A stretch of 64,000 nt of DNA from Nemertoderma westbladi (taxonomy: Eukaryota > Animalia > Xenacoelomorpha), in NCBI GenBank assembly GCA_032718475.1, contig JAUCBJ010004524.1:22894-86893 (forward strand), written 5' to 3'. Of this stretch, positions 1,515 through 59,754 are shown piece by piece. The notes beneath the pieces are model-generated. The model saw only the letters and a list, made by a program, of their open reading frames with translations. It was not told the DNA's origin and made no database searches. Made by a program: the position numbers and the translations under genes. Numbering within the stretch: the first letter of the stretch is position 1; every line of letters begins with the position of its first letter.

Positions 1515-4275
1515 TGACTGACTGGCTGACTGGCTGACTGGCTGACTGGCTGACTGGCTGACTGGCTGACTGGCTGACTGGCTGACTGGCTGACTGGCTG
1601 ACTGGCTGACTGGCTGACTGGCTGACTGGCTGACTGGCTGACTGGCTGACTGGCTGACTGGCTGACTGGCTGACTGGCTGACTGGCTGACTGGCTGACTG
1701 GCTGACTGGCTGACTGGCTGACTGGCTGACTGGCTGACTGGCTGACTGGCTGACTGGCTGACTGGCTGACTGGCTGACTGGCTGACTGGCTGACTGGCTG
1801 ACTGGCTGACTGGCTGACTGGCTGACTGGCTGACTGGCTGACTGGCTGACTGGCTGACTGGCTGACTGGCTGACTGGCTGACTGGCTGACTGGCTGACTG
1901 GCTGACTGGCTGACTGGCTGACTGGCTGACTGGCTGACTGGCTGACTGGCTGACTGGCTGACTGGCTGACTGGCTGACTGGCTGACTGGCTGACTGGCTG
2001 ACTGGCTGACTGGCTGACTGGCTGACTGGCTGACTGGCTGACTGGCTGACTGGCTGACTGGCTGACTGGCTGACTGGCTGACTGGCTGACTGGCTGACTG
2101 GCTGACTGGCTGACTGGCTGACTGGCTGACTGGCTGACTGGCTGACTGGCTGACTGGCTGACTGGCTGACTGGCTGACTGGCTGACTGGCTGACTGGCTG
2201 ACTGGCTGACTGGCTGACTGGCTGACTGGCTGACTGGCTGACTGGCTGACTGGCTGACTGGCTGACTGGCTGACTGGCTGACTGGCTGACTGGCTGACTG
2301 GCTGACTGGCTGACTGGCTGACTGGCTGACTGGCTGACTGGCTGACTGGCTGACTGGCTGACTGGCTGACTGGCTGACTGGCTGACTGGCTGACTGGCTG
2401 ACTGGCTGACTGGCTGACTGGCTGACTGGCTGACTGGCTGACTGGCTGACTGGCTGACTGGCTGACTGGCTGACTGGCTGACTGGCTGACTGGCTGACTG
2501 GCTGACTGGCTGACTGGCTGACTGGCTGACTGGCTGACTGGCTGACTGGCTGACTGGCTGACTGGCTGACTGGCTGACTGGCTGACTGGCTGACTGGCTG
2601 ACTGGCTGACTGGCTGACTGGCTGACTGGCTGACTGGCTGACTGGCTGACTGGCTGACTGGCTGACTGGCTGACTGGCTGACTGGCTGACTGGCTGACTG
2701 GCTGACTGGCTGACTGGCTGACTGGCTGACTGGCTGACTGGCTGACTGGCTGACTGGCTGACTGGCTGACTGGCTGACTGGCTGACTGGCTGACTGGCTG
2801 ACTGGCTGACTGGCTGACTGGCTGACTGACTGACTGACTGACTGACTGACTGACTGACTGGCTGACTGACTGACTGACTGACTGACTGACTGACTGACTG
2901 ACTGACTGACTGACTGACTGACTGACTGACTGACTGACTGACTGACTGACTGACTGACTGACTGACTGACTGACTGACTGACTGACTGACTGACTGACTG
3001 ACTGACTGACTGACTGACTGACTGACTGACTGACTGACTGACTGACTGACTGACTGACTGACTGACTGACTGACTGACTGACTGACTGACTGACTGACTG
3101 ACTGACTGACTGACTGACTGACTGACTGACTGACTGACTGACTGACTGACTGACTGACTGACTGACTGACTGACTGACTGACTGACTGACTGACTGACTG
3201 ACTGACTGACTGACTGACTGACTGACTGACTGACTGACTGACTGACTGACTGACTGACTGACTGACTGACTGACTGACTGACTGACTGACTGACTGACTG
3301 ACTGACTGACTGACTGACTGACTGACTGACTGACTGACTGACTGACTGACTGACTGACTGACTGACTGACTGACTGACTGACTGACTGACTGACTGACTG
3401 ACTGACTGACTGACTGACTGACTGACTGACTGACTGACTGACTGACTGACTGACTGACTGACTGACTGACTGACTGACTGACTGACTGACTGACTGACTG
3501 ACTGACTGACTGACTGACTGACTGACTGACTGACTGACTGACTGACTGACTGACTGACTGACTGACTGACTGACTGACTGACTGACTGACTGACTGACTG
3601 ACTGACTGACTGACTGACTGACTGACTGACTGACTGACTGACTGACTGACTGACTGACTGACTGACTGACTGACTGACTGACTGACTGACTGACTGACTG
3701 ACTGACTGACTGACTGACTGACTGACTGACTGACTGACTGACTGACTGACTGACTGACTGACTGACTGACTGACTGACTGACTGACTGACTGACTGACTG
3801 ACTGACTGACTGACTGACTGACTGACTGACTGACTGACTGACTGACTGACTGACTGACTGACTGACTGACTGACTGACTGACTGACTGACTGACTGACTG
3901 ACTGACTGACTGACTGACTGACTGACTGACTGACTGACTGACTGACTGACTGACTGACTGACTGACTGACTGACTGACTGACTGACTGACTGACTGACTG
4001 ACTGACTGACTGACTGACTGACTGACTGACTGACTGACTGACTGACTGACTGACTGACTGACTGACTGACTGACTGACTGACTGACTGACTGACTGACTG
4101 ACTGACTGACTGACTGACTGACTGACTGACTGACTGACTGACTGACTGACTGACTGACTGACTGACTGACTGACTGACTGACTGACTGACTGACTGACTG
4201 ACTGACTGACTGACTGACTGACTGACTGACTGACTGACTGACTGACTGACTGACTGACTGACTGACTGACTGACT
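1515..4275. repeat. Compound microsatellite: (TGACTGGC)n from 1515 to ~2824, then (TGAC)n to 4275
   Basis: Directly visible, essentially perfect array of ~2.76 kb. Confidence 0.99.
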
Positions 4276-5554: not shown

Positions 5555-7137
5555 TACCAAGTTTCAGTCTAAACGGGTTGTAAATAGCAAAGCTGGAGAA
5601 GATGTTTACTTTCAGACATTTCGCCCTTTAGCGGTAGACTGTGGCACTTTAGACATCTCTACGACTCCGTAACGATACAACCTATCCTGTAGTAGATACC
5701 TACCAAGTTTCAGCTCAAAAGAATTAAAAACAACCAAATGAGATCAGGTTTTCACTATCAGACATTTCGCCCTCTAGCGTTAGACTGGTTAACTGTAGAT
5801 GACTCTGCCACTGCATAAAGATACAGCCTATGCCGAAGTAGATGCCTACCAAGTTTCAGTTTAAACCAATTGTAAATAACAAAGCTGGAGGAGATTTTCA
5901 CTTTAAGACAATTAGCCCTCTAGCGGCAGACGGGAACTGTAAACGAAACTAATACCTATATGATAGCAAGTTTCAGCTCAAAAATAATTAAAAACACCCA
6001 AATGAGATCACGTTTTCACTATCAGACAATTCGCCATCTAGCGCGGACGGGTGAACTGTAACCGACTCTGCGTCTCAGTAATGATACAGCCTATGCTGAA
6101 GTAGATGCCTACCAAGTTTCAGTCTAAACGGATTGTAAATAACAAAGTTGGAGAAGATGTTCACTTTCAGACATTTCGCCCTTTAGCGGCAGAAGGGGGA
6201 ACTGTAGACGAATCTGCGACTTTGTAAAGATACAGCCTATGCTGAAGTAAATGCCTACCAAGTTTCAGCTCAAAAGAATTAAAAGCAACCAAATGATATT
6301 TTATATATAAATTATTGTAGGAAGATATACAGTATCACTTGAATATGTAAGAAACCGCCGTGGGATAAGGGATCCGGTTTAGTGTATATATATTTGTAAG
6401 CATAAAATAATAAATAAATAAAATGTTATTTTAAATAAACCTAGATCGACCTCAGAAAAATTCATATATTATTATTATTATATTATTTTATTTAAAATAA
6501 TATTTTATTTATTTATTATTTATTTATTATTCATTATTTTATGCTTACAAATATATATTTTATATATATATAATATATATTTACAAGCCTACACACCATT
6601 ATAAACATTAATTAATTAATTATTAACTTAACTTAACAAAACGTCATATGATTGAGTGTTCTCTCAAACAAAAGGACTGATGCTGTTTTACTTTTCAGAT
6701 ATCTACATACAACGTACAACATCATATAAGGCTCAGGTTGTAGTAGACACCTGCCAAATATCACTTCCAAAGGATTACAAATTGTAAAAATATGGAAGAA
6801 GGTTAAACTGTAGAACTGCAGGTGGTTACCATCCTCGTAAATACAACCTATAGTTTAGTTAGTTTAGTATGTACTGCATTGCATTACGCCCCCTAGTGGC
6901 AGACAGAGCTGTTGCAGATTGGTCAGAGTTCTCCACAAACAGGCAGTCTATGGTGTATTAGACCTCTGCCAAGTATCAGCAAAAAAGCATTAGGAACAAC
7001 GACATGGGATAAGGTTTTCACTTTCGGATTTCTCTCCCCCTAGCGGCAGACTGGGGAATTCCAGATTGGTCAGCGTCCTCTGCAAACACACAGCCTATGG
7101 TGTAGTAGACCTCTGCCACGCATCAGCTATAAGGCAT
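5555..7137. repeat. Diverged ~146-bp tandem repeat (continues at 10629-10790), interrupted by an AT-rich insert at ~6300-6690
   Basis: Recurring CCAAGTTTCAG...TTTCACT.TCAGACA.TTCGCCCTCTAGCGG.AGAC, with the motif at 5622, 5768, 5914, 6032, 6177, 6887 and 7034. Confidence 0.85.
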
Positions 7138-7150
7138 ATATAAGGCTATA

Positions 7151-8131
7151 TTGCTGCACTTAGTAGCGCCAAATGGAGATATCTTTCTATTCGACCTAGG
7201 GACCTATGGAAAGAAGAGCGGGCCGAAGTTGAACCGGTTGCCAAACGCAGTGCAGGAGGTAGTAAGACAGAAGACTATGGTCAAGGTGGGATCGGCGATA
7301 CACGACGACGCAGACAGAATTATTGGACCAGACACCCCCAATCTTCCGGACAGGCAGGTAGTCTACATGGCTATGACGAAACCAGAAGGATTGGGATTGG
7401 TGGACAACACGGGACATTGCGGATCCGTGGCGATGGGCCAACTGATGGGACTCGTCTGCCACAAGCCGATGGACTGGAACAAGTTCCGGGAGGAATACGG
7501 AGCGGAACTTGCGAACTCACTCAAGTGGGGAGCGAGACCAGGGAAGGAGGAGCTATATCACTTCCAGAAGGGAGCGATGAAGATATATCAGAAGATATAT
7601 ATCCTACAAGAGGACTGGATAATTATAGGTTTACTAAACCTATTCATTGCGGTGACTATCGGGAGGGAGCCGATGGCGTTTCTACTATCGGGATCACCTC
7701 TGAATCACAGGAGAGCCTTTAAGGTGGCCCTAGAAGGTCTTGTAGACCACCCGGGGCTGAAGGGCGAGTCGGTATATTACAATACCCGACACCTGGTGGA
7801 CAGAGAGGTAGATACACTGTACATGCAATGGAAGAAACAGGAGGCGGATAGGGTTGAGGAGAGGAGACTAGAGGAGGTCGCCAGGAGAGAGAGAAGGGAG
7901 GCAGCGGGCAGAGAGGCAGATATAAGTGGAAAGGAGTATGAGTTCGAAGCCCAGGATTTGGACGAGCTGAGGTGGGGATCGGAGACCTTGGGTGAGTTAC
8001 GGTTGGGGGACGAACTGGGTTGGATGGAAGAGACACCGACACAGTCTACATCGGGGCTACAAAGAATGCCCATGCCTGCAGGCTCTGAGGGCAACATCGG
8101 AAGGAAAAGACCGAGGGAGTTAGAAGGGTAG
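7151..8131 (+). pseudogene. N-terminally truncated DEDDy 3'-5' exonuclease-like domain (RNase D/WRN/EXD2-type) followed by an acidic coiled region
   Basis: LHLVAPNGDIFLFDL...LPNAVQEVV...KVGSAIHDDADRI resembles the LQLA..LFQL..LP..L..LL...KVGVGI..D..KL (ExoII) segment. QKIYILQED resembles ExoIII (Q..YA..D). The ExoI DxE motif is absent because of the truncation. Confidence 0.6.
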
Positions 8132-8190
8132 AAGGTCATCGCGGATACCAGGGTGGAAAGGGACACAGTGGATTATCTGGGATCCCGGGT

Positions 8191-9130
8191 TTGGATCCAC
8201 TCCCAGCAGGGGAAGAGGAGGAGGACGAGTTCGGGGTGATGCTGCTGATAGAGAGGATTGCGCCCACGGCAGGGGAAGAAGAGGAGGATGAGTTCGGGGC
8301 GATACCACCGATAGCAAGGATTGGCCACTCGGACATGGACTGTGTGTACGGGAGAGTGGTGACGGCCAGTGGGGCGAGAGCCTTCTGGGACAAACCCGGT
8401 AAGCGGTCCTGGGAGCACAGGGAGCCGACAATGGACTTCGCGGCAAGTACGATCCGACTGGGAGAGCAACCGGGGATGGCACCACGGGTAGTGTTTGGAT
8501 AAACGATGCCGAGGGTGGAAGAGGACATCGAAATGGGTAGGGAAGACAATGTCCAGATGTTTACCTACCAGCGGGTCCACAGACCCAGGAGGCCACATGG
8601 AGCCAAGGATGACTTGGGGTGAGAGACAATGATACACAGTTGCGATTACTGTGGGAGATTAACCCATCAGCAAAAGAAATGTCTATACCGTTACCAAAAG
8701 TGGATGGCGTGTCTTTACTGCCGCGAGTCTACACACAGGATGGGCGCGCGCCCATGGTTGCACAACAGGTATTCGAAGTGCAAGTTTAGAGGGCACTTTG
8801 AGCGCCAGTGCGACTGGATGGATGATGAGGAGAAATTCCGCATTTTCGAGGAATGGGCTGACGTCGGAGTCATGAAACGACAAAGGATGAAGGCCCAGGA
8901 GTTCCGGTGGGGCTTCTTCAACATTAATATAGAAGCCCACCAGCAGATCACCAAGAGGAGACTACCATTCACGTATCAGGAGGTAGCGACAGTGGCATCA
9001 TAAGGAGGGGTCATCAACACCCAAAGATATCTGGACAGATGGTCAACAGAAAATAGGATCGAATTCAGGGACTTTCTGGTGGAACACATGCCGCGTGCGA
9101 TGAAGATGATCTTGTGCGACGCTACCAGAG
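8191..9130 (+). pseudogene. Degraded continuation of the accessory ORF: acidic repeats, then CCHC zinc knuckles and a conserved C-terminal domain
   Basis: CDYCGRLTHQQKKC (Cx2Cx4Hx4C), CLYCRESTH..., SKCKFRGHFERQC; stops at 8500 and 9001; homologous to 51800-52275(-). Confidence 0.7.
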
Positions 9131-9991
9131 GGAGACAGAAGGGACACTCAGTGGGACCAACTGCGAAGCGATATTGTGAGTTAAAGAGCCAACAACGTGG
9201 CTTGGTAAGACGGTGTCAGCTAGGATGAGTAGCCTCAAGGGTAAACAGGAAGGCAGGAAGCGACCCAGACAGGACGACGATAGGGGCAAGGAACTTAGAT
9301 GGTTCCCGGAGGATGCGGGAGGAGCGATGTAGAACTCTAGGACAGGTGATATCAATGTGCCTGGAAGGCACCACATGGACAGACTAGTACAAACAACTCC
9401 TAAGTGCAATTTAACTAAGTGCAATACATTTATATATACAATAAATATATAATCAATATATACGTATCATAGTCAGATATAACATTTTCCAATTAGCTAC
9501 TGGGACTGGGGACTAATTGACTGAAACAAGAGGACAGAACAATGATGGATCTTACTGACATGATGTACACATGCGTGAGACGCGATAAGAGTGTGAGGAG
9601 AGTGACACCGAAAACGGGTTGAGTATGGGAGGAGGTGTTAGTGATGGGGAAGTAAAAGGGTGCGAGATTCAAGTGTGGGGAGCGAGCATGGAGGGGGATG
9701 AGTCCTAAGGGACTAGCGAAAGAGGAAAGGACAACAAAGTCCGAGAGATAAAATTGTGTGAGGAGTGCGGGCAATCGTCTAAAATAGAGACACCAGATAC
9801 CTTGGTACAGCTTAGCTCACAGCTGTCCCAAGGATGGGTAATGAAAGCAGACCCATGGAGGGCCGGCCTGGAAAGCTGACCCCGAGAAGAAAATTCCACC
9901 CACATCCAATATTAGATTGGATTCCAGCAGAATTGAAGAGCACTGAAGGTTGATGCTATCTTCTCACCCGGATGATAGCATGGGGGGGGAG

Positions 9992-10628
9992 TGTAAGCGG
10001 ATTCAATTCCTTGCACTACCCAGCAGAAAATGGGGCGAAGTGGCATTTTACCAATTATAATTGGGAAGGTAACAATACCAATAATAATGTCACCTAACAA
10101 CCAATTTAGGCGATACACATCGCCAGCCACAAAGAAAGTTGAGAGGTCATAAACCTTCTCAGAGGGACAAAGGGGCTAGCAAGGCTAGCATATGGGGATA
10201 GTGGCAACAGGGAGTGGCATGATGGTAATTAATCGGATTAGCCAATGATGGGAGGGGAAAACAGGTGATTGGAACGCATCTACTGGCCAGGCCACTCAAT
10301 ACAGTAGCTGTGATTAATGTGTGTTAATAATATATAACAGTTGTACTTGTGGATTATGATTCAGTTGGTAATCTGTAGAGTTGTGAGACCGGAACGGTTT
10401 TCAACCGTCATCATTACCGTGCTATTATATTCTGACTGTGCTATTATTATGTTCTGTGATTAAAACAACTAAGACTAAAACTGAATTATTCCAATGGCCT
10501 CAGGCCTATTATATTATATCCAGACACCACAGCCTTTCAGCAGCATAAGGACGCGGCGACACGTATAATACCAAACACACACACACCGGTCAGGTTCCAA
10601 ACTGCCAACTCCGTTGGATCCCGTCACA
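9992..10628 (+). repeat. Putative 3' LTR (637 bp)
   Basis: TG...CA ends with an imperfect terminal inverted repeat (TGTAAGCGGATTCAA vs reverse complement TGTGACGGGATCCAA), preceded by a PPT. Length is similar to the LTRs at 50543 and 57487. No partner LTR in the window. Confidence 0.6.
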
Positions 10629-11149
10629 TAGACCTCTGCCACGTATCAGCTAAAAAGCATTAATAATAACGAAATGGGAAAAGGTTTTCAGTGTCTGACA
10701 TTCTGTTTCTAGCGGTAGACTGGAGAACTGCAGATTGATCAGTGTCCTCCCAAACACAAAGTCTATGGTCAGGAACATATCTGCAAAGTATAATTTAGAA
10801 CAGATTGAGTCTGTTGGTGCAACCGCTGTTATAGAGTTTCCTGCTGGTTGACAAATTTGGCTGAAAATGGTTATGGAATAATAGCCCAATTTGACCACAA
10901 ATACGCATTCACGCATAAATGATGTATAAAATTAGCCTCGATATAACGACGTTTCACATCACCCCATGTGCTCGGGGCAGTCTGCACCATGTAGATGCGC
11001 ATGAAAAGTAGCAAAATAGTCGAGACCCAACGTCTAGAGTGACAGAATGAACTGCTAGGCCTACTGCACTACCAGTACCAGATTCACGAAATTTGCTTTC
11101 ACGCAAACAAACACTTATAAGACTCGAGATAGCGACAGTGCACGTGTTC

Positions 11150-28873: not shown

Positions 28874-30947
28874 CCCTATTACCACTGGTGGGGGGGGGGG
28901 GGGGGGATCGGCCCATTCCTAGTTTTTAGTTGCTGTAACTATGCAACCACATTACGTACCGGCCCAATTTTTATTGAGATTTAGCCAAATTTAATGCCGC
29001 ATCTTTTGCAAAAAACGACGTTGCAATTGGATTTCTACTTTTCGATGTGGGTGCCACCTCAAAATTTGGTCTCCAGCACCAACTTTTTTGAAATTTTCGA
29101 ATTTTACAAAGTCATTCGTGATTTAGTAATTATTTATGTTTGGGCTATTTTTATTTATTTTTATTGGTTTGGATCACTCTAATGCTCTATACAAGTATGT
29201 AAGTGTAGTGGTACGTCATTTTTGGAGCAACAAAATTAGGGCGTGGCACTCTAAAATTTCAAAACTACTTTATTCGTAAAATTTACTAACGTTTTGATTT
29301 CGAAGCATTTTTATTGGTTTTCTGGAGCACTGAATCGATTGAAAGTAATATAGAAGCCTGAAGACTTGTGGTTCGCCATTTTTGGTGCACCAAAATTAGG
29401 GCATGGCACTTCCAATTTTGAAAAATACGACATTCGGAAAATACACTAAAGTTTTGATTTCAAAGCATTTTTATAGGTTTTCTGGAGCGCTGAATCGATT
29501 GAAAGTAATATAGAAGCCTGAAGACTTAGTGGTTAGCAATTTTTGGTGCACCAAAATTAGGGCGTGGCACTTCAAATTTTGAAAAATACGAGATTCGGAA
29601 AATACACTAAAGTTTTGATTTGCAAAGCATTTTTATAGGTTTTTCTGGAGCGCTGGATCGATTGAAAGTAATATAGAAGCCTGAAGACTTAGTTGTTCGC
29701 CATTTTTGGTGCACCAAAATTAGGGCATGGCACTTCCAATTTTGAAAAATACGACATTCGGAAAATACACTAAAGTTTTGATTTCAAAGCATTTTTATAG
29801 GTTTTCTGGAGCGCTGAATCGATTGAAAGTAATATAGAAGCCTGAAGACTTAGTGGTTCGCCATTTTTGGTGCACCAAAATTAGGGCATGGCACTTCCAA
29901 TTTTGAAAAATACGACATTCGGAAAATACACTAAAGTTTTGATTTGCAAAGCATTTTTATAGGTTTTTCTGGAGCGCTGGATCGATTGAAAGTAATATAG
30001 AAGCCTGAAGACTTAGTGGTTCGCCATTTTTGGTGCACCAAAATTAGGGCATGGCACTTCCAATTTTGAAAAATACGACATTCGGAAAATACACTAAAGT
30101 TTTGATTTCAAAGCATTTTTATAGGTTTTCTGGAACGCTGAATCGATTGAAAGTAATATAGAAGCCTCAAATCCTTGGTGTACGTAATTTTCGGTGCACC
30201 AAAATTAGGGCGTTGTACTTCAAATTTTCAAAATTACTTTATTCGGAAAAACACGAAAGTTTTGATTTCAAAAAATGGCTAACCTCTAAGTCTTCAGGCT
30301 TCTATATTACTTTCAATCGATTCAGCGGTCTAGAAAACCTATATAAATGCGCTAAAATTTCAATTTTGGTTTATTTTCCGAATCTCGTATTTTTCAAAAT
30401 TTGAAGTGCCATGCCCTAATTTTGGTGCACCTCAAATGGCGAACCACTAAGTCTTCAGGTTTCTATATTACTTTCAATCGATTCAGCGGGCCAGAAAACC
30501 TAGAAAGATGCGTTGAAATAAAAAATTAGGGGCATTTTCTGAATATTTAATTTGTCAAAATTTGAAGTGCCACGCCCACTTCTTAAATGCACGAAAAATA
30601 GCATCCACTTCAATTTTTGGAAATGGAATATAATCACATTCGATTCAGCATCTTGAAAAACCTACTAAATCTAGACAACACTGCCACACTATTAGTTTTT
30701 AGAAAACGAAAAATTTTGTAATTTTGTCCTGGGACTACTTTTATTTTTTTCATCAAAATTATGATTCCCTGCTTATGAAATTTTAACTTTTTAAGGTTTG
30801 GTAATGTTCATCTATAGTTGTTTCACCAACAGCCCAAATTCTGTAGGATTTCATTGAACGATTACAAAAATATAGTGGGTGGGCCGAATCGCCCCCGCCC
30901 CCAGTGCCAGTGGTGCTAATGGTCAAAACACCCCAGTGGTAATAGGG
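28874..30947. mobile_element. piggyBac-like non-autonomous element (TTAA target) with an internal ~160-bp tandem array
   Basis: TTAA|CCCTATTACCACTGG ... CCAGTGGTAATAGGG|TTAA; about 6 direct units (GAAAGTAATATAGAAGCCTGAAGACTT...) at 29240-30270, then inverted units at 30280-30600. Confidence 0.88.
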
Positions 30948-33830: not shown

Positions 33831-34418
33831 GGCGACCCATAACTTTTAGAGATTGGTGACTATATAATCAACTGAAGGTAATAAATGGTGCGTACTATTT
33901 TATTAAGTTTAGTCATTAAAGGTTTTAGTATACTATGGTCTATATACGGTAAGCTATGGAAATACATTTAGTGCTGTTGTATCTAATCAGGTAATTAATA
34001 ATTGTTAACATGTAGATATTTCACTATATAATCTATAGTAATCAATAATAAATAGAACAGGTTACAGTTTTATTACAGTAGTTACTAGTGTGAAATAAGT
34101 GTGAGAGCTGAGCGCTCTAATTTCTACATTTACCAATATGTCACTGAACATTTTGGATAAATAAAATAAAATAATGTGTTTCTCTGGAAACACAAATGGT
34201 GCCCGTCTAACTGTGAATGCAACCGTTAGTATAATTTACATTACAGAAACAAAACCTGTTATCATGGATGCACAAAAATAGTGACATTCTGGTAAATATT
34301 AAATGTATTTTGAACATAGTGTACTCTATTAACTGTCTACTGTCTAAGGCCTTGCAAGCGTTCAGCCTTCATAATTTATGGAGGCTGGATTATAACCGGT
34401 AGCATACTGCTGTACTGT

Positions 34419-35747
34419 GTGTGTGCAGGCATGGGGAAAAATAGTGACATTCTGGTAAATATTAAATGTATTTTCAACATAGCGTTCTCTATTGCTACTG
34501 ATTGCCATGCAATTTTTAAACTCTTATCTGCTCGACGCAGGGATTTTGAACTAGCTGAGATTATGGAGGACATCAAACAACATGTCATTCTTCGCCATGT
34601 AGACTCACGATGGCTAACAACTGGTCCAGTAGCCACCCGACTCCTGAAACAGCTTCCAGCACTAATTAATTATTTCAAGTTCTGCAAAAACAGCAAAGAT
34701 CAATCCCTGAAGAAGTTCTCTCAGTCTGCAAGATTCATTAGAATTGATACCACACTATCCAATCCATTGACGCAACCATGTCTAGACACCATTGTGTATC
34801 TCTGTGGACTGTTCAAATACTTCCTTCTGACGTTTCAGAAAGCGACTCCACAGGTGCACTACATCTATACAGAGAGCAATGATCTGTACCACAGGATTTT
34901 GTCTGTGTTCTGCCTGTCAGATAAACTTCAGTCCTCGGAGAGGTTACCACTTACAGGAAAGAAACTCCTCGATGTTGATTTCAATTTGTCATCTAACTGG
35001 AGTACTGGTCTGCAACTTGGATGCGCCCTCGAACATTCTGATCTAACTCAACCTCTGATCAAGCAGTTGCGAACTGGTCTTATAGCAATGGCGCAGTATA
35101 TTCATGGCCACTTACCTATATCAAACATTCTATTCCGTTCTCTCCAAGTTATCCATCCCATAATTGGTAGTCGAAGAGTTACAGTGGCAAAGAAATGGCT
35201 CAAGTATCTCACTGTGCGCTTTATAAGAGTTTGTGGGGGTTCAATGGCAGATGCAGACACAATTAACCATGGGTATAGTTTATTCTGTCTTCAAGACCTG
35301 TTGGAATATGAAATCAATCTCGCAAATGAAGACATTAGTATGTTTTGGACGGAGTTCATGCAGAAAACATACCCGATTGGTGGTGAAAAAAACCAGTACC
35401 TGGCACGATTCATGTTGAATATGGCAACTTTCACCCATGGCAATGATGGACCGGAGAGGGGATTTAATACAAACAGCCTCATTGTCAACAAACAACGTTT
35501 GAATCTAAAGAAAAGTACCATTATAGGCACTCGCCATTGCAAAGAAGCCATAACAATCGCGGGTGGTGCCCACAATATATCATATACCTCAGAAATGCTA
35601 TCTGCTGCATGCAAAGCATATGCAACATATAACCTAGATCTGCAGGAAGACAGGGCTGCGCAGCAAATGAGAGATCTTGAATCGACCAGGAAGCGCAAGA
35701 TAGCCGAGGAGGAGGAAAGCCAACTCAAACGTCCTGCAGACATTTAG
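34419..35747 (+). pseudogene. C-terminal part of a hAT-like transposase
   Basis: ILRHVDSRWLT (hAT 'TRW' motif) and HGNDGPERGFN (dimerisation-domain S/N...ER.FS motif with catalytic E); the coiled-coil tail continues to ~36020 after a frameshift. Confidence 0.75.
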
Positions 35748-42323: not shown

Positions 42324-45300
42324 TGAGAGAGCGACACCTTCCCTAATATCGATTAGTATGGTATTGTGTGAGAGAGCGACACCCTCCCTAATATCGATTA
42401 GTATGGTATTGTGTGAGAGAGCGACACCCTCCCTAATATCGATTAGTATGGTATTGTGTGAGAGAGCGACACCCTCCCTAATATCGATTAGTATGGTATT
42501 GTGTGAGAGAGCGACACCCTCCCTAATATTGATTAGTATGGTATTGTGTGAGAGAGCGACACCCTCCCTAATATCGATTAGTATGGTATTGTGTGAGAGA
42601 GCGACACCCTCCCTAATATCGATTAGTATGGTATTGTGTGAGAGAGCGTCACCCTCCCAAATATCGATTAGTATGGTATTGTGTGAGAGAGTGACACCCT
42701 CCCTAATATCGATTAGTATGGTATTGTGTGAGAGAGCGACACCCTCCCTAATATCGATTAGTATGGTATTGTGGTACTGAGAAACCGACACCTTCCCTAA
42801 TATCGATTAGTATGGTATTGTGTGAGAGAGCGACACCCTCCCTAATATCGATTAGTATGGTATTGTGTGAGAGAGCGACACCCTCCCTAATATCGATTAT
42901 TATGGTATTGTGTGAGAGAGCGACACCCTCCCTAATATCGATTAGTATGGTATTGTGTGAGAGAGCGACACCCTCCCAAATATCGATTAGTATGGTATTG
43001 TATGAGAGAGCGACACCCTCCCAAATATCGATTAGTATGGTATTGTGTGAGAGAGCGACACCCTCCCTAATATCGATTATTATGGTATTGTGTGAGAGAG
43101 CGACACCCTCCCTAATATCGATTAGTATGGTATTGTGTGAGAGAGCGACACCCTCCCAAATATCGATTAGTATGGTATTGTATGAGAGAGCGACACCCTC
43201 CAAAATATCGATTAGTATGGTATTGTGTGAGAGAGCGACACCCTCCCTAATATCGATTAATATGGTATTGTGTGAGAGAGCGACACCCTCCCTAATATCG
43301 ATTAGTATGGTATTGTGGTACTGAGAAACCGACACCCTCCCTAATATCGATTAGTATGGTATTGTGTGAGAGAGCGACACCCTCCCTAATATCGATTAGT
43401 ATGGTATTGTGTGAGAGAGCGAAACCATCCCTAATATCGATTAGTATGGTATTGTGTGAGAGAGCGACACCCTCCCTAATATCGATTAGTATGGTATTGT
43501 GTGAGAGAGCGACACCCTCCCTAATATCGATTAGTATGGTATTGTGTGAGAGAGCGAAACCATCCCTAATATCGATTAGTATGGTATTGTGTGAGAGAGC
43601 GACACCCTCCCTAATATCGATTAGTATGGTATTGTGTGAGAGAGCGACACCCTCCCTAATATCGATTAGTATGGTATTGTGTGAGAGACCGACACCCTCC
43701 CTAATATCGATTAGTATGGTATTGTGTGAGAGAGCGACACCCTCCCTAATATCGATTAGTATGGTATTGTGTGAGAGAGTGACACCCTCCCTAATATCGA
43801 TTAGTATGGTATTGTGTGAGAGTGCGACACCCTCCCTAATATCGATTAGTATGGTATTGTGTGAGAGAGCAACACCCTCCCTAATATCGATTATTATGGT
43901 ATTGTGTGAGAGAGCGACACCCTTCCTAATATCGATTAGTATGGTATTGTGGTACTGAGAAACCGACACCCTCCCTAATATCGATTAGTATGGTATTGTG
44001 TGAGAGAGCGACACCCTCCCTAATATCGATTAGTATGGTATTGTGTGAGAGAGCGACACCCTCCCTAATATTGATTAGTATGGTATTGTGTGAGAGAGCG
44101 ACACCCTCCCTAATATCGATTAGTATGGTATTGTGTGAGAGAGCGACACACTCCCTAATATCGATTAGTATGGTATTGTGTGAGAGAGCGAAACCATCCC
44201 TAATATCGATTAGTATGGTATTGTGTGAGAGAGCGACACCCTCCCTAATATCGATTAGTATGGTATTGTGTGAGAGTGCGACACCCTCCCTAATATCGAT
44301 TAGTATGGTATTGTGTGAGAGAGCGACACCCTCCCTAATATCGATTAGTATGGTATTGTGTGAGAGAGCGAAACCATCCCTAATATCGATTAGTATGGTA
44401 TTGTGTGAGAGAGCGACACCCTCCCTAATATCGATTAGTATGGTATTGTGTGAGAGAGCGACACCCTCCCTAATATCGATTAGTATGGTATTGTGTGAGA
44501 GAGCGACACCCTCCTAAATATCGATTAGTATGGTATTGTGTGAGAGAGCGACACCCTCCCAAATATCGATTAGTATGGTATTGTGTGAGAGAGCAACACC
44601 CTCCCTAATATCGATTAATATGGTATTGTGTGAGAGAGCGACACCCTCCCAAATATCGATTAGTATGGTATTGTGTGAGAGAGCGACACCCTCCCAAATA
44701 TCGATTAGTATGTCCGACTTTTTAATCAATAGTACCAATTTTTTCATTTTTATATGTCAATATAATAAAGCAAAATGCCAACAAATATATACTACACGAT
44801 ACATTTAGCATTTACGGGGGAAATTCAAACTATTTTTAATATTATTAATTAATCCTGTCCGTCGCAGCAGTCTGTCAGTGGTAACTGAACTACCCAACTG
44901 AACTACCCAGCAACCCCGCAGTCCGTATCCGCGTTCGCCAGCCGTATGGAGGTGTCCAATATCGATTAGTATGGTATTGTGTGAGAGAGCAACACCCTCC
45001 CTAATATCGATTAGTATGGTATTGTGTGAGAGAGCGACACCCTCCCTAATATCGATTAGTATGGTATTGTGTGAGAGAGCGACACCCTCCCAAATATCGA
45101 TTAGTATGGTATTGTGGTACTGAGAAACCGACACCCTCCCTAATATCGATTAGTATGGTATTGTGTGAGAGACCGACACCCTCCCTATTATCGATTAGTA
45201 TGGTATTGTGGTACTGAGAGAGCGACACCCTCCCTAATATCGATTAGTAAGGTATTGTGTGAGAGAGCGACACCCTCCCTAATATCGATTAGTATGGTAT

Positions 45301-45526
45301 TGCGTGAGAGAGCGACACCCTCCCTAATATCGATTAGTATGGTATTGTGTGAGAGAGCGACACCCTCCCTAATATCGATTAGTATGGTATTGTGTGAGAG
45401 AGCGACACCCTCCCTAATATCGATTAATATGGTATTGTGTGAGAGAGCGACACCCTCCCTAATATCGATTAGTATGGTATTGTGTGAGAGAGCGACACCC
45501 TCCCTAATATCGATTAGTAAGGTATT
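42324..45526. repeat. 45-bp satellite, roughly 65 copies, interrupted at 44713-44956
   Basis: TGAGAGAGCGACACCCTCCCTAATATCGATTAGTATGGTATTGTG units; occasional longer variants containing GGTACTGAGAAACC. Confidence 0.98.
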
Positions 45527-50542: not shown

Positions 50543-51174
50543 TGTTATGGTAACGGAGTTGTGTGCTCGCATGCCGTACCATAAACTTTAGATTGCGTGA
50601 CTGTCGTAGTTGCCCTGGCTCGGTATAAACCATTCGTACAATTGAAAGAGTTAGTCTGTAGACAAGAGAAGTAGAAAGAGATTTTCTGTAGACTATAGTA
50701 TGTTTATTGATCGTTAAATGTTATCGATACTTGACTGAATATATTAGTATGACTGCATGATTATCTGTACTATTAGGTATTACACTTCTGCACTGCATGC
50801 GGTTGCGATAGGCCTACTAATTAGTTCGCTATCGATCTAAACTGTCTGCACAACTAGTTAATTACTGGGCTACAAATAAGTTGTATACCCATAACCAACA
50901 TTGGTTTATTGCCTGCACATTTAGTAGGCTGTGATTGGACCTCTCATATATCTTGTATATTCCTACCTACATATTGCACAATGGAAGTTTCCCGTGTAAG
51001 TTAGCGAGGCTACTTCCCCATACTTGTGTAATAGGTTTGGTGCCAACCAAACCTATTATTGCTTTCTTGTATTGATGTATCTTTCTTCTACTTTGTATTG
51101 ACTTCCCTCCTGTTGACTGCTTTCCTATATTGCTTAAAAACATTTGGCTGCATTTGGGTGCTACTGTCGTAACA
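50543..51174 (-). repeat. 3' LTR (632 bp)
   Basis: TGTTATGGTAAC...GTAACA; diverged direct repeat of 57487-58125. Confidence 0.9.
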
Positions 51175-51779: not shown

Positions 51780-52300
51780 TTGGCTGACGGTCCCTCCTTC
51801 CTTATGTCCTCCGCATGAGCATGAGCTCATCCTTATCCTTGTCATAGTCTCCCTCATCTCCCTCGGCAGATGCTCCCTGAGAAACTTTTGTAGTTCCCAC
51901 CTGTTTTCCTGACTCCATCCATTCAGAATTCTTTGCAGGTGAAGAACCTTCCCATCTTTGGGCACCGCCATCAGCTCCCAATAACTGAACGGTTCCTTGC
52001 GTATATTGCCGATAGGATTTCCCTGCTGAGGTTAAAGAAACCCATTTGCATGTCTTTAACTTTAATCTCTCGCATGACATTCCACCATTGTCCGCATGTG
52101 TTTCGAATACCCGCAACATCGTTTGTGCATCTGCAGAACCACAGTCTGACTCCATGTGTCCTCAGAAGAGGCAGATGCTGCACCGATTATGTAGGGTAGG
52201 TATTATCCAAATCAAAACCCACTATTGTTACAGTAGAGGCACTTCATCCCCATCGTGTACTGATGCAGGCAATCCTTATGTTTGTGGGTTTTCCTACCAC
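51780..52300 (-). pseudogene. Accessory ORF remnant: zinc knuckles plus conserved C-terminal domain
   Basis: DCLHQYTMGMKCLYC..PTLHNRCSICLF*GHMESDC..RVFETHADNG..MGFFNL..LQRILNGWSQENRWELQKFLREHLPREM aligns with 8680-9110. Confidence 0.75.
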
Positions 52301-52317
52301 AATTTATCATAATTTAC

Positions 52318-52830
52318 ACCATTGAATTGAATTGAATTTATTTACTTCCTCAAAATTTATATAAAAAACAACAAACTAAACAATACCACAGAATCTGCTG
52401 GGTACTTTGGGTGGGCCGCTGCTATAGCAGAGCTAGTGTTGCCATACCTGTATGTACCATACTTCATAATATAAATATCTATCTAACTCCCTAACTCTCT
52501 TAGCATATGTATCATACTTTACACCATACATATATATCTAACTCCCTAACTTTCTAGCATATGTATCGTACTTTACACCATACATATCTACAGTATATAA
52601 CTCTCTAACTTTCTACACTTATATATCATATTTTACGCAACATACATTTATCTAACTAAACTAACATTAATTATCATACATAACATACATTATTTGTTCA
52701 TGTACTTTGCTACTTACCTACTTTGCTTCTACATACTGTGGTTTATACAATATTTTCTAACTAAAACTAACACATTCTTTCGTTATATATTAGTTAACTT
52801 ATTGTATTAAATTTCTTTCTTTATTTAAGT
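52318..52830 (-). mobile_element. Probable LINE 3' UTR inserted in the BEL element
   Basis: Minus strand ends AATAAA(TTCAA)3; AT-rich with ~3 internal ~58-bp duplications; truncates the accessory ORF. Confidence 0.5.
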
Positions 52831-52899
52831 TGTATTTATTTTATTTTATGAGGCATTACATATACCCCCCTAGTCCAATATGTATATTGGATGAAACAT

Positions 52900-55860
52900 C
52901 TCATGTCGAATCATCCACTAAACAACAGTTGGTTATCAGCCTTGTATATGTCTTCCTCTTCTTCTCACCGATTTTTCCACCAATTTGGAATTCCACACCA
53001 CCGGTGACATCTTCGATGATGACCGACCTATGATCTTCGATCATCAGTGACTGTCACTACTTTTGCCAATCTCCAGTCACTGCTTGCAATATTAATAACT
53101 GTGACCATAATTAGGTCCCCTTTCTTAATGTCCTTCTTTTCCTCTCGCCACTTTTATCTTCCATGGAGCTTTCTCCATCTTTCCCAGAATTTCATCACCA
53201 TAGCTTTTAGTGCTTTCCACGTCCATTTTGAGAGGTAGTCATCCTTATCGTCTATATCTATTAGCACATGTGCAGGTCTTTCGTGTAATATATGTGCTGG
53301 TGTTATCACTTCCAACGATTCCGGATCATCGTTTAGCTGGCATAGTGGTCTACTATTTATTATTCCTTTACACTTCGCTAGTGCAGTCCTTAAGATGTCC
53401 TCTGTTATGACATAGTCCGCTATTAGCACCTTCATCGCTTGCTTCATACTCCCTACAAGCCTCTCTATGAATCCTATGGTATGTGGCACATATGGTGTCT
53501 GCATAGAACACTTTATCTCATGTTTTCGTACTGAAGAATCTACGTGTTTTTGGTTATATTCTTCCGCTGCTTCCCTTAATTCCCTTTCAGTTCCCACGAA
53601 GTTCATTCCAATATCCAAGCATAATTTCCTGACTACTACTCCTCTTCTGGTTGTGAAACGTTCGAGCGCATTTATGAATGCATTTGTACTCGCATCCACG
53701 GGTGGCTCTATTGCGATCGCCCTAATGTTGTTATAAATGAATATTATTCCATACCGCTTTTCAGTGAGATGGTGGATGTTTATCATTATTGGCCCAAAAT
53801 ATATGTATAGGGAGGCTCGTAACTTATGAGTCTATCTACTGGTAATGCCAACATATGCTGATGTTATCTAACTTTCTTAATTTCATGGCATATTATGCAT
53901 TTCTTGACTAGATGTTTTATTCTTCTCCCTTATTTGTGATATCCAGTTCTTTCTTCTGAGCTCGTTTATCATTGCGTCCATTCCCCCATGAAGGATTGTT
54001 TTATGACTATGCCAGATGATTTGTTCTGTTATAATAGATTCGTTCGCTATTATAACTTGTTTCTTTGTGATCAGTATTGATATAGAGTTGATTAATCGCG
54101 AGTTCATCGCTAGCAATCCATACTAATTTATCTCACGATACATCAGTTTGATTTTGCGTTCCGTTCCATAGGGTTTTTTGTTCTGTATTCGCTCTATCTC
54201 TTTACTATAGTATTTTTCTGCTCATAAGCTAATATCGCCGTTTCTGCTGTATTGAAGTCTATGCTGGGTTTTATCCCTGCTGCTTAGCTTTACTCTTTAA
54301 GTATTCCCCAAATGCTCAATAATACGCTACAAACTTCCTGGTCGTATACCAGCTAAAGTTATACCCTATCAGTTTGTCTGTGTGATTTGTATTCCCCTCT
54401 AACTTCATTGGTTGTATTTCATTCAACATGGAGGTATATATGTCACCTCTTTCGACGTTTGCTTCTCTACCATCCTCTTCCGCTTCCCGGACTTTCTCTA
54501 CATATTTCCCTTTGACATTCTCTGGCCATAGATTCTAATCATCTAGGAACTTAGGCCCGTGCTGCCATAAGTTTTATTTTTCCTCAAAAATCGTTGCTTT
54601 ACTCCTCTTGACAATAGATCTGCCGGATTGTCTTCCATCAGACAATGTTTCCAATTGATAATATTCATTATCGCTCGTATCTCATCCACCCTATTTGCAA
54701 CGAATATTGGTTCTCTCGTTTCCTCATTTGTCAGCCATCCTATCACTACCATCGAGTCTGTCCAATAGAAAATTTCCTTGACAGTCGGCATGGCATTTGC
54801 GACAATGCCACCACTCTTGCTCCTACATGTGCCACCATTATTTCTAACTTTAGCACTCCTAATGAGTTTGTTGGTATCGATCTTGCCTTACTGAAGATTA
54901 ACCATATATATCTTATATATATATATATCTCGTTGTACGATATCCAATGACGCTCTGTATGCCTCGAGCGATGCATCTCCAAATATATGCAATTCTAGAT
55001 TATCCATATTACCATCCAGGAAATAAGATCGTGATATAGTGATCTTCCTTCCCCATCTCATATATACTGTTTATCCAAGTTCTCCACTCCATCTGTATTT
55101 CCTTTGGTAACTGCTCGTCCCATCCGCCTTTCAATCGGTACACTTTCTTTAGGATTTGTTTACCTATCCCTAACAGTCGCGATACGAATCCTAAAGGATC
55201 GTATATGTGTGCAATATACGATACGTAACCTCTCTGTGTGTGTATGTCATCCCCATCATATGTGAATTGATACTCTAATATGTTGGTTTCTCTGTTCCAT
55301 GTTATTCCTAGAGCTCTCTGTTCCGCTTGGTACCTTTTATCAGCCACTAGCTCCTCTGTACTGTTTAACAGTACTATCTTTGCCTTTTCTTTAGTCTGCT
55401 CTCCTGCGGTGATTCTATCCATCGCTTCCATAAATTCAGTCGAATTCGTTTTAAACTTTGTTAAGTTAAATCCTGACCCCTTTAATATCTCGCGAACTTT
55501 GCGTGCTAACTCAATGATTTCCCTTTCAGTATTTCCTGATCCCATTCCATCATCGACATAGAATCCCTTCTGAATCATCTCTATCGCCTTCAAGCTATAT
55601 ATGCCCTCTTTACCCTTCATGGTATCTGGTATCGCCGTTGTAGTTGTGTATGAGGAACACTTGGAACCCATGTTGTGGACTATCATCTTATAGCTTGGTA
55701 TTACAGCTGGTTCTATGTCCCCATTATACCACAGGAACCTCTTACTATCTCTATCTTCCTTCGTAACTAACACTTGATTGAACATACCTCTAATGTCACA
55801 AATAAATGTGAATGTTCCATACCTAAAACTTATTAGTACCTCTACACCGATTAGTACCTC
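52900..55860 (-). pseudogene. BEL/Pao pol remnant: RT, RNase H, integrase
   Basis: CDIRGMFNQV..RFLW, FYVDD, GFNLTKF.TNS, ALGITWN, IYDPLGF, LHIFGDAS..AY, WTDS.V..W, FVANRV, DNPADLLSRG, H...LHGG, RFTTRRG, NFVG, ERLV, INSRPL, ITPAH, FWERW; many frameshifts. Confidence 0.93.
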
Positions 55861-55868
55861 TAGTACCT

Positions 55869-56800
55869 CCAAATAAAATTATTCAAACACCAAAATAAAT
55901 TTTTCAAAACCAAAAAAAATTATTCAACACCAAAACCAATTATTCAATACCAAAATAAATAAATGCTCCCCAAAACCAATTATTAGCACTAAAATAAATG
56001 ACAAAACCCCCAAAATAATTACAAATTTTCCTAAAACAAATACATTTTCCCCCAAAACAAATACAATTTAGCCCAAAACAAATACATTTTCCCCCAAAAC
56101 AAATACAATTTAGCCCAAAATAAATTCATTTTCCCCCAAAACAAATACATTTTCCCGCAAAACAAATACATTTTAACCCAAAATAAATACATTTTTCCCT
56201 AAAATAAATACATTTTCCCCCAAAACAAATACATTTTATTTTCGCCCAAAATAAATACATTTTCCCCCAAAACAAATACATTTTTGCCCAAAATAAATAT
56301 ATAATCCCCCAAAATAAATACTATACTATACCACACACATGCAATAGGCCTAGCAATAAAATAAATAAGGCCTAAAATTTTAGTACTGCCGTAATACTGA
56401 AACCTAATAACATAATAAAGTAATAGGCCATAGGCAATAATAGATAGGCAACAGGCCTATAGGTACGAATACTGAAACTGAAGTAGGCCTACTGTAATAC
56501 TGTCAGTACATCGGTGCGAAAACTAATAACAGAATACTTGTTCTGAAGGCAATAGCCTATCGGTACGAATAGTGTAACTGAAGACTGATGCATGCGCCCA
56601 TGTGAAGAATACCAGGATTTAATATAAAATATTTGGTGCTGGAATAATTTTTTTTGGTTGACAAGTAATTATTTTTGGGGAATGAATAATTGTTTTTGGG
56701 GAATCAATAATTGTTTTTGGGGGTAGAATAATTGTTTTGGGTAAACAATAATTGTTTTTGGGGGTAGAATAATTGTTTTTGGGGGATGAATAATTGTACC
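55869..56800. mobile_element. Foldback-like insertion with ~21-bp tandem subrepeats in inverted arms
   Basis: Left arm (CCCCAAAACAAATACATTTT)n and CCAAAA..AATTATT; right arm (AATAATTGTTTTTGGGG)n; AGGCCTA/TACTG-rich spacer. Confidence 0.7.
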
Positions 56801-57360
56801 AAAATCTAAAATACCACTACACAATAGTCTGTTCAGGTCACTGGCCATAATAAAGGCTTCGTGATTAGAGAGTTCAGGGTTACCGAATATAGTTGAGTGT
56901 TCTAAATAGTTATTTACCTTGGTAATCCTACTCATCAAGTCAGCATCGACTCTAACTGAGTTCTTTGATTCGGTGAATTGCCTTCTCATGGCCCTATAAT
57001 TCCTGGACATTCTGTTGATCCTAGCTGTATCTTTTCCCGTTCTCGTCTGTTGGGTGTGATGAATAGGCTCAGGGTTTTCAATGTCTCCCAGCGCAGTCAC
57101 ACCCCACTCCCTGGTTGCGGCTCTGCCCCATGGTGCACCAGCTGCTGTGTCTCACCACGCGTCCATCCTGACTCGCTTGTTCTGCCCGTCTCTATCCTCG
57201 GGTTCCCAATGTCCATCACAGGGTGGGGGCTTCAGTCCTGGTCCGACCCCGGCTCGATCACCATGACCTCGTCCTCCGGGGGTCCCTCCGTAAGCCCTAT
57301 ACTGGCTGCCAGGTCCCCTTCCCCTCGCTCTCTGATTGACCTCCTCTCGCTCATCACTCT
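56801..57360 (-). pseudogene. Probable 5' part of the BEL gag ORF
   Basis: Coding-like minus-strand ORF between the 5' LTR and the deletion breakpoint; assigned by position only. Confidence 0.45.
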
Positions 57361-57486
57361 ACTGGTACCGTAGGCCTACAACTAGCAGTAGTGCCTACCG
57401 ATCTTTGAGTCTCTACTTTCCATCCACTCTCTCTCTCACTCCCATTCTCATTGCTGTCCTAAGTTGTACTGCTGTAATTTTAGTAC

Positions 57487-58125
57487 TGTTACAGTAACCA
57501 AGTTCTGTGCTCGTGTGCTGAACTGTAAACTTTAGATTGCGCGACTATTGTACTCGCCCCGGCTCGGTATAAACCATTCCTACAATTGAAAGAGTTAAAT
57601 GTATTGTCTTTAGACTATAGTATGTATATTTTGTTCGTTGGATGTTATGGATACTTGACTGAGTATATTAGTATGACTGCATGATTAACTGTACTATTAG
57701 GTATTACACTTCTGTGCTGCGTGTGGTTGCGGTACTAATTAGTTCGCTATCTATCTAAACTGTCTGCACAACTAGTTAAATATTGGGCTACAAATAAGTT
57801 ATATACCCATAACCTACATTGGATTATTGCCTGCACATTTACTAGGCTGTGATTGGACCAGCGTTGTAATCAGCTGATTAATAATGTGCAGCTGTCAACG
57901 TGGCCCTTTCTCTGGTTACATGGTATCTCATATTCCTACCTACATATTGCACAATGAAAGTTTCCCATGTAAGATAGTGGGGCTACTTCCCCCTCCTGCT
58001 TGTGTAATAGGTTTGGTACTGACCAAACCTATTATTGCTTTCTTTGGTTGCCAACTTTGTATTGGCTTCCCTATATTCCTATATTGCTTAAAAACCGTCA
58101 GTAGCATTTGGGCGCTACCGCAACA
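57487..58125 (-). repeat. 5' LTR (639 bp)
   Basis: TGTTACAGTAAC...GCAACA; followed by the TSD ATAAA. Confidence 0.9.
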
Positions 58126-58628
58126 ATAAACTCTTTTTTATACCAAGATAATAATATAAACTACATCTCAACTCAATTAACCCATCACCAGATGTTTTAC
58201 AATACATCAATTAACCAAAGGTCAATAAACTAAACAGTAATAGTATATCGTATACCTATCTAATATCCCAACTCAATAAGCCCATCACCTAATGTTTATA
58301 ATACATTAACCGAAGGTCACCACTAATCTTTCGAGCGAAAATAATCATTCTTGAGAATTACAGTTTATATTGTAATAATGATATTCTGGCACCCATGTAA
58401 GGTTATGAGTTCATTAACCTCGACTGGTATTACATCACATTTACCTTGCAGGAATTTCGCGAAAGCAGTTTCTTTCAAAGATAACTAAAGAAAAACGTAC
58501 GATGCTCTAGAATCTATTTGATGGAGGAAGCGGTCCCTTATCACCCCTAATCCCGGTCATCAACCAATCCGCGACAGACCCCGGCCCTGCCCTGGTACAC
58601 CACACTTACATCAGACATAATTGAAATA

Positions 58629-59754
58629 GTGCGCAATACAATCCGTAACAAGATGGGTGGTATAAAATGCAAACTGTCGATTGTCAATAAGAATATCGAC
58701 GAGCTTGGAGTGCTCCGAATGAAAGTCACGACTCTAAATACTTATGTTGTGACACTGAAGAGAGACTACTACCACATGAAACTTGAATTAGAGGACTGCA
58801 AAGACACGATCCCGAAACAGCAATGTCAATTGGAAACATTCAATGCTGGTGCCAAATATTTATCGTCCGGGTGCCGATATCGATACAGCACAATTGTAAA
58901 TGGACAATGAGACGGGTCGTTCTATACCAGCAGGATTTAACTGGACACAACAAGGTGCGTCTGTGGGCGGTAATGGGATCAGTTGCGGTCAGGCAAACCC
59001 CTGGGGATGGGGGCCAGTACAGTCACCATTATTACAACCACATCAATACCAACCAATGATCACCCAACAACCCAGTCTGTCTGGCCAACAACCGATTCAA
59101 CTCCAAGGCCAACCATGACCAGATTGGGTACAGGCACTCCTGGACGGTCAAAATTGCGTGGAGAATAAGTTAGATATCATAAATCAACGCCTAGACCAGC
59201 ACGACACAAAGATTAATAAACTGGAGAAAGAAAACATGGACCTGCAAACAGATTTACTCCGCGTTCGCAATGTAGTAGGGGATCACCAACGTTTCTTCCA
59301 GAGGATAGACTCTCGAGAAAGGAGCTGCAACGCAATCATTCGGGGGCTAGAAGAAGATGATGTCAGCGATAACGAAAAGATAAAGAAGATTCTTCACGTC
59401 GCAGTTGTTAATGAAGAACCAACCGAGATGTTTCGATTAGGAAAAGAAGACGACGCTTAACGAGTGGGCCCGCGTGGTGTACTACTAAAGATGAAGTCTT
59501 CTACAGCTATAACTCAGTTACTCACGAGCGAAAAGAAAATTCAGGAATTACCTGAACTATCAAAAGTTTTTATCAAAAAGGACGCACCTCCTCATATTCG
59601 TCGGGAGAGAAAACGGTTGTTTGATGCCTGCGAAGCAGAGAAAGCAAAACCCCAGAATGTCGGTGTGAAAATCTATATAGATTTTAAGAAATGGAAGTTA
59701 TATAGAGGTGAGGAAGTTATTGATGAATTCCATCACAATAGTTCGGGTTTTTGA
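58629..59754 (+). pseudogene. LINE ORF1 (coiled coil + RRM/CTD-like), disrupted
   Basis: Heptad-rich segments, DSRERSCNAIIRGLEE, FRLGK, PRGVLLK, VFIKKD; stop at 59458 and frameshifts. Confidence 0.75.

Follow-up and report, generated by a model that had tools for sequence, protein, structure and literature searches.

The closest described counterparts of the gene reported here are found in bdelloid rotifers, where the long terminal repeat (LTR) elements Juno1, Juno2, Vesta2 and Vesta5 carry a third open reading frame (ORF3) for an RNase D-like DEDDy protein, shared with the Athena elements/Terminons (Rodriguez, Kenefick and Arkhipova 2017, PMC5408684). In that report the DEDDy ORF3s are described as acquired at least twice and of undemonstrated activity, with which PMC5718144 concurs. 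ORF3s are typically expressed from spliced messages, according to PMC5408684. In a cellular enzyme, the RNase D of Trypanosoma brucei (TbRND), zinc fingers bind RNA and raise cleavage (PMC7797062). BEL/Pao elements (Belpaoviridae), described as metazoan, carry the genes gag, pol and sometimes env (PMC8742986). Here we describe a 64,000-nt window of Nemertoderma westbladi DNA (contig JAUCBJ010004524.1; the window is the whole stretch analyzed, and all coordinates are positions in it), containing the 3' remnant of an LTR element, designated element 1 (7140-10628, plus strand), and an older relative, element 2 (58125-50543, minus strand). On balance, we read element 1 as the decaying 3' end of a many-copy LTR element, whose selected last gene likely encodes a WRN/EXD2-type exonuclease with three zinc knuckles that would act in RNA trimming.

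Element 1 and its repeated family

The window consists of repeat-rich eukaryotic DNA of ~30-45% GC, with satellites and remnants of long interspersed nuclear elements (LINEs). Between 7000 and 10000, the GC content is raised to 47-55% and the plus strand is purine-rich. Element 1 is bounded on both sides by ~147-bp satellite units, which match across it (6959-7101 with 10629-10769, and 7106-7143 with 10629-10666). This indicates that it was inserted into a satellite unit, and that its 5' part was lost together with some satellite sequence. The truncation lies at about 7140-7148, and the element's own 5' LTR is deleted. At least three contigs of other copies diverge from the window at 7148, continuing with different sequence, while a satellite contig meets the window exactly at 10629. 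At the 3' end, a spacer (9229-9991) closes with a G-rich polypurine tract (PPT) ending at 9991 (G-run 9983-9991), and directly 3' of it lies a 637-bp TGT...ACA unit, the 3' LTR (9992-10628), which adjoins the satellite at 10629. A first, sequence-only reading of this DNA had proposed this PPT and LTR-like unit, and both were borne out. The env position that it assigned to the gene was not confirmed, as the truncated element 1 has no pol upstream, and neither was a paired LTR for element 1 itself, its 5' copy being deleted.

Contigs from three DNA runs (two samples, two studies) were aligned to positions 6700-11000. They gave 5921, 3945 and 4197 contig records per run and covered 30 of 30 bins in each; one of the samples may be the source of the window itself. 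The contigs are a few hundred bases long, and contig depth does not equal copy number. No RNA data set was listed as containing the sequence. The element is a dispersed many-copy family, and its repetition in the genome is confirmed by these thousands of records in three runs with all bins covered.

Within 7270-7650 (381 bp), for which 641 and 507 contig records provided tens of contigs per site, the copies differ by 10-20%. In this interval 46 sites are variable at 30% of depth or more, with no indel listed at that share. Third codon positions, counted from site positions only, account for 28 of the 40 variable sites listed out of these 46 (P = 2.4e-6). The sites that vary between copies include 25 third positions out of 31 (P = 8.6e-8), and those private to the window 3 out of 9; with all six unlisted sites taken as non-third, the excess still holds at P = 1.2e-4. 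This excess demonstrates purifying selection in the exonuclease-like frame across the family. The family diverged under purifying selection, and the copy in the window then decayed neutrally.

The decay is visible in the reading frames. The first frame is open from 7133 to 8128 (332 open codons), with a stop at 8129 and the next at 8237, while the second runs from 8089 and meets stop codons at 8500, 8620, 9001 and 9226. Since the two open frames overlap, a frame change must lie somewhere in 8089-8236, and the gene in element 1 is broken by this change and four stops. The degraded long ORF expected at 7151 to ~9130 was thus recovered, as two frames. Behind the exonuclease-like domain (7133-7650), a helical extension and an acidic, low-complexity linker (7651-8622, plus strand) contain the frame change and the stops at 8129, 8500 and 8620. 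The linker, foreseen as acidic, is indeed G/E-rich, and carries a 55-bp internal duplication (8206-8260 and 8269-8323).

Three CCHC-spaced zinc knuckles follow at 8641-8811 (plus strand), detected by Pfam and a motif scan and homologous in element 2. They start at 8641, 8710 and 8770, and the match to Pfam zf-CCHC_4 (E = 5.6e-4) lies below the curated cut-off. Of the roughly three CCHC-type knuckles predicted from sequence alone, all three spacings were found, but only the one at 8641 is complete; it is the sole complete CX2CX4HX4C in the six frames of the window. In this copy, the knuckles at 8710 and 8770 have lost one ligand each, and the third keeps all four in element 2. At 8500, 8620, 8749 and 8771, the last two lying inside knuckles 2 and 3, nearly all aligned contigs differ from the window, and these two stops and the knuckle losses are therefore private decay of this copy. 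The gene ends with a C-terminal domain of no known family (8812-9228, plus strand; stop 9001, end 9226), for which a Pfam search gave no match. The exonuclease-like and knuckle parts, which lie in different frames in this copy, probably form one protein. The knuckle ORF had no relatives among the viral contigs searched.

Two other identities of the gene were considered and rejected. A host exon does not agree with an intronless, multi-copy gene bounded by a PPT and an LTR, and a gag gene does not agree with the PPT, rather than pol, standing 3' of it. As a separate observation, contig depth summed over 9868-10011, immediately ahead of the PPT, exceeds that of adjacent bins by a factor of 10-50, with 79-91 contigs at 9973; two longer contigs end at 10002. 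This pre-PPT stretch seems to be common to many families with other LTRs.

Resemblance to DEDDy exonucleases

The exonuclease-like domain (7133-7650, plus strand) has a cut N-terminus, its first ~4 codons being satellite or junction sequence. An ExoII-like segment reads I-H-D-D-A-D (7298-7315) and belongs to a KVG..I.DD motif at 7274-7309, whose two Asp codons (7304-7309) were placed in register with a DD that is invariant in bacterial WRN-like proteins. An ExoIII-like segment, Y-I-L-Q-E-D-W (7598-7618), was placed by MAFFT under Y-A-A-L-D-A-W. Among the 40 of 46 variable sites listed, none falls at 7304-7309, 7598-7600 or 7610-7618.

In a language-model atlas, PF01612 was found in 26 of 30 and 29 of 30 matches, at 0.92 and 0.94; of 100 shuffled proteins, 4-10 also reach 0.9. 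Profiles were built from single-domain bacterial members of PF01612 with matches to WRN, EXD2 and Mut-7 structures, a family picked after the atlas lead. With hhalign, six bacterial WRN-like proteins matched the ORF at E = 0.0014, with 47 in-register columns that extend from the L-x-L strand as far as the ExoII DD, and a 126-sequence profile at E = 0.0077. A hidden Markov model (HMM) of the six proteins placed the ORF at rank 1 of 1068 window segments (E = 0.45), and of 500 shuffles none of the 332 that were scored reached it. A blastp match to E. coli RNase D (E = 0.003) covered 43 residues that immediately precede ExoIII. An alignment-guided model, which leans on its alignment, gave the order strand-strand-helix-strand-helix for the N-terminal part. 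Together, the atlas and profile matches make a DEDDy fold of the WRN/EXD2 type likely for this domain.

A number of observations weigh against this assignment. ExoIII reads Y-x-x-x-E-D-W instead of YxxxD, with Glu in the catalytic Asp column, although Tyr and Trp are in register. An ExoI DxE is absent from the window, and by the hhalign register would lie ~7-9 residues upstream of the cut. The hhalign probability is just 17%, for a family chosen after the atlas lead, and the atlas recognition value of 2153 is under the strong-score level of that resource, with shared-feature counts of 154-169, below 170. With the 126-sequence profile, the ORF ranked second (E = 1.1) and was beaten by 1 of 150 shuffles; an RNase D profile did not detect it; and the count of invariant residues in forced alignments was matched by 59 of 150 shuffles, giving no separation. 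The exonuclease part had no Pfam or NCBIfam match at E = 10 and no match among PDB sequences. AlphaFold models were poor (predicted local distance difference test scores of 36 and 54), and fold searches returned no exonuclease; with models of this quality, empty fold searches are no evidence against the fold. The DEDDy-like ExoII and ExoIII segments noted in the sequence-only reading are accordingly present and in order, without a match to a curated family or structure. The profile and structure check proposed there gave matches with hhalign and the atlas, and none in Pfam, PDB and fold searches. With ExoI beyond the cut and Glu for Asp in ExoIII, the domain is no more than a candidate for catalysis.

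An HRDC domain was also considered and was not seen by Pfam. No homologues of the exonuclease part were found in protein searches among near sequences or those of longer length, and among 1.84 billion representatives it gave two matches, both repeat proteins unrelated by Pfam. None were found in viral, metagenome or prokaryote contigs, and the plasmid and phage tblastn rows were at chance level.

Element 2 and the identity of the carrier

Element 2 is an older relative of element 1. Its 639-bp 5' LTR (57487-58125, minus strand) is preceded by a target site duplication (TSD), and the same 5-bp TSD stands next to its 632-bp 3' LTR (50543-51174, minus strand); the PPT region is apparently deleted. 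The two LTRs, with ends TGTT...AACA, are identical in 508 of 579 columns (87.7%; Kimura two-parameter distance 0.135). No primer binding site was found behind the 5' LTR, and no tRNA gene in the window. The knuckles and the C-terminal domain, without the exonuclease part, are located at 51800-52324 (minus strand). In tblastx comparison, the knuckle and C-terminal region of the two elements showed 56%, 37% and 48% identity (sum E = 1.9e-31), with 37-48% amino-acid identity in the C-terminal domain. Their DNA is colinear from 8627/52324 to 9913/51185, thus including the element 1 spacer up to 9913; the alignment was reached by 0 of 100 block shuffles, and that of the spacer alone by 3 of 200. 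The LTRs of elements 1 and 2 are weakly alike, their score being reached by 9 and 8 of 300 shuffles, by 1 and 0 of 100 with global scoring, and by 87 and 97 of 200 with strict local scoring. The presence of a knuckle-gene homologue inside paired LTRs with a TSD proves that the gene travels between LTRs.

Element 2 also contains a degraded BEL/Pao pol remnant with a cut 5' end (52880-55878, minus strand), comprising reverse transcriptase (RT), an RNase H (RH) region and integrase (IN). Pfam matched Peptidase_A17 (E = 2.5e-11), RVT_1 (E = 1.6e-4) and rve_3 (E = 3e-4), in the order RT-RH-IN, and the BEL RT had no relatives among the viral contigs searched. As the family is described as metazoan, this pol points to an animal host. 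An AT-rich insert (55870-56797), built of 20-21-bp tandem units in inverted, foldback-like arms, cuts the 5' end of this pol.

We consider it slightly more likely than not that the BEL pol is nested in element 2 and splits the gene there, and is not the carrier's own pol. The integrase is directly followed by a G-run, TGTAA and an AT-rich sequence of 537 bp (52861-52325) ending with AATAAA...TTCA. As a whole, this piece (52325-52870, minus strand; 28% GC) is shaped like the PPT and 3' LTR of the BEL sequence itself, as at a standard BEL end (PMC8742986); it had no partner copy in the window. The very end of the 537-bp piece is also the point at which knuckle homology to element 1 sets in again, in the middle of the gene. 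Moreover, the GC-rich stretch behind the 5' LTR (56800-57470, minus strand), which is either a homologue of the element 1 linker (8088-8616) or the 5' end of gag, resembles that linker. Positions 57470-56936 align with 8088-8616, ending beside the point at which knuckle homology resumes. This alignment was reached by 0 of 300 block shuffles and 0 of 600 Markov nulls, the top 3 of 625 tiles fell in the linker, and the expected coding pair was the best of nine frame pairs (1 and 3 of 300). The GC fraction of the stretch, 0.56-0.61, is linker-like, compared to 0.34-0.42 in the pol, and no BEL gag domain was detected behind this LTR.

The linker homology is the weaker side of this argument: the match is of low complexity, its score is reached by 67 of 300 shuffles under strict scoring, nhmmer gave E = 33 and 42, and scores of 99-102 are attained by reversed controls, compared to 117-121 for the match. 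It is possible, if somewhat less likely, that the carrier is instead a true BEL/Pao element with the gene as its third ORF, in which case element 2 would be internally deleted and the G-run after the integrase would be a relic of an ancestral end. Within the paired LTRs and 5-bp TSD of element 2, the BEL pol has the orientation of the element and occupies the expected place, after the 5' LTR and ahead of the knuckle gene, which makes this the simpler reading. In addition, the frame 57151-56798 is open across the supposed junction at 56936. The LTR-shaped piece behind the integrase and the resumption of homology at its very end argue against this. BEL membership of the family, as first proposed, was therefore not confirmed, the sole BEL pol in the window lying in element 2, perhaps nested; the autonomous gag-pol partner of element 1 is not in the window. 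What stands of the proposed lineage is an LTR family ending in a conserved exonuclease-like and knuckle gene, without the BEL/Pao assignment.

An RNase D-like domain has reportedly been noted in nematode Cer/BEL elements, on which a literature search found no paper. No exonuclease in BEL/Pao was found in the literature searched, outside of which lie most subscription papers, supplements and repeat databases. The word exonuclease has 0 occurrences in the main text of PMC3118150, PMC9094657, PMC13524379 and PMC8556966, and RNase D has 0 occurrences in that of PMC3118150 and PMC9094657.

At 57470-57487, no primer binding site follows the 5' LTR of element 2, and the linker-like match starts at the equivalent of 8088, the opening point of the second frame in element 1. 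This could hint at two separate ORFs or at a non-autonomous derivative.

Several other repeats were observed in the window. A LINE remnant (58551-62792) has a long RT frame (RVT_1, E = 4e-28) with coiled-coil, ORF1-like pieces upstream. An open frame of 475 codons with a transposase-like look (34320-35747), which we take to be hAT-like, had no Pfam match at E = 0.01. The repeat unit of a perfect 2.8-kb microsatellite (1515-4275) changes from 8 to 4 bp, a 45-bp tandem array of ~71 copies (42324-45526) has frames open on both strands, and a 161-bp satellite (29206-30577) inverts at 30272 to form a long palindrome.

Possible roles and comparison with known systems

In the reading that we favour on balance, exonuclease, linker, knuckles and C-terminal domain would form one protein, translated, by analogy, from a subgenomic message of its own. 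As suggested by the trypanosome RNase D, RNA would be tethered by the knuckles and have its 3' ends trimmed by the nuclease, for the benefit of the element. The substrate may, tentatively, be RNA in the element's own ribonucleoprotein or silencing small RNAs that target the element; in the latter case the protein would be a counter-silencing enzyme.

An action on DNA during reverse transcription, in proofreading or trimming of cDNA ends, appears improbable. WRN-type exonucleases act on DNA, and the nearest profile is of the WRN/EXD2 type, not RNase D. On the other hand, single-stranded RNA binding is established for nucleocapsid knuckles, the copies of the family differ by 10-20%, which is no sign of high fidelity (with age as a confounder), and three CCHC knuckles point to single-stranded RNA (for an RNase D, PMC7797062). 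That the resemblance to exonucleases arose by chance in a conserved retroelement gene is, in our estimation, slightly more improbable still. The empty curated-family, PDB and fold searches and the atlas scores of shuffled proteins would agree with it, but atlas, hhalign, the small HMM and blastp converge on one family, and ExoII and ExoIII stand in the right order.

Less improbable, while still rather unlikely, is a DEDDy derivative that is weakly catalytic or inactive and would serve as an RNA-binding scaffold or decoy, in the manner reported for EXD1 and Maelstrom in piRNA pathways, both described as inactive DEDD derivatives in PMC5408684. ExoI is not visible, and Glu occupies the ExoIII catalytic Asp column, apparently in most copies. 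However, none of the listed variable sites falls in the two ExoII Asp codons, the Tyr of ExoIII or the acidic pair at the last site, and in bdelloid ORF3s, too, Glu replaces one Asp (DEED) while the remaining residues are kept (PMC5408684). We regard as very unlikely the strongest version of the RNA-trimming reading, namely a non-rotifer BEL/Pao lineage with an independent WRN/Mut-7-type capture, fusion to three RNA-binding knuckles, and strong selection for an active nuclease trimming or destroying the silencing small RNAs of the host; if true, it would represent a retrotransposon-encoded enzymatic suppressor of piRNA defence.

Compared to cellular proteins, the domain shares with the WRN/EXD2/Mut-7 group of PF01612 an L-x-L...FLF...P..V..VV....KVG..I.DD core and a Q..Y...[D/E].W end, in order. 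It differs from this group in its ~15-23% identity, a ~30-residue insertion between ExoII and ExoIII, YxxxE, and the lack of ExoI in the window. The likeness to TbRND, a DEDD exonuclease with C-terminal zinc fingers, is one of architecture; TbRND is cellular, of the RNase D type and has four fingers, whereas the present gene is mobile, of the WRN type and has a long acidic linker. Features shared with BEL/Pao are the pol remnant at 55878-52880 and, in both elements, the TG...CA ends and the size of the LTRs. Should the carrier be BEL, exonuclease capture would reach a family for which the literature searched describes no genes beyond gag, pol and env.

Like the bdelloid ORF3, the gene is DEDDy-like, closes an LTR element where env would be expected, and shows one Asp-to-Glu change, here apparently at ExoIII. 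No Juno, Vesta or Athena ORF3 was among the homologue search results for the exonuclease part. Unlike in the bdelloid genes, the domain is followed here by three CCHC knuckles and a C-terminal domain of no known family; in PMC5408684, knuckles are placed in gag or pol, with just a Cys-His-Cys motif in some ORF3s. The bdelloid enzymatic third genes were reported without evidence of function or of selection for the exonuclease type, and variation was tested only for the env and GDSL ORFs, where it was mostly neutral (PMC5408684), whereas here many divergent copies are under purifying selection. Such selection on a many-copy cargo suggests that the cargo helps the element, and makes this family a better test case than the low-copy rotifer families. 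This kind of gene is thus already known from rotifer elements, and what is new here is its WRN/EXD2 type by the profiles tested, the triple knuckle, the many copies and the demonstrable selection.

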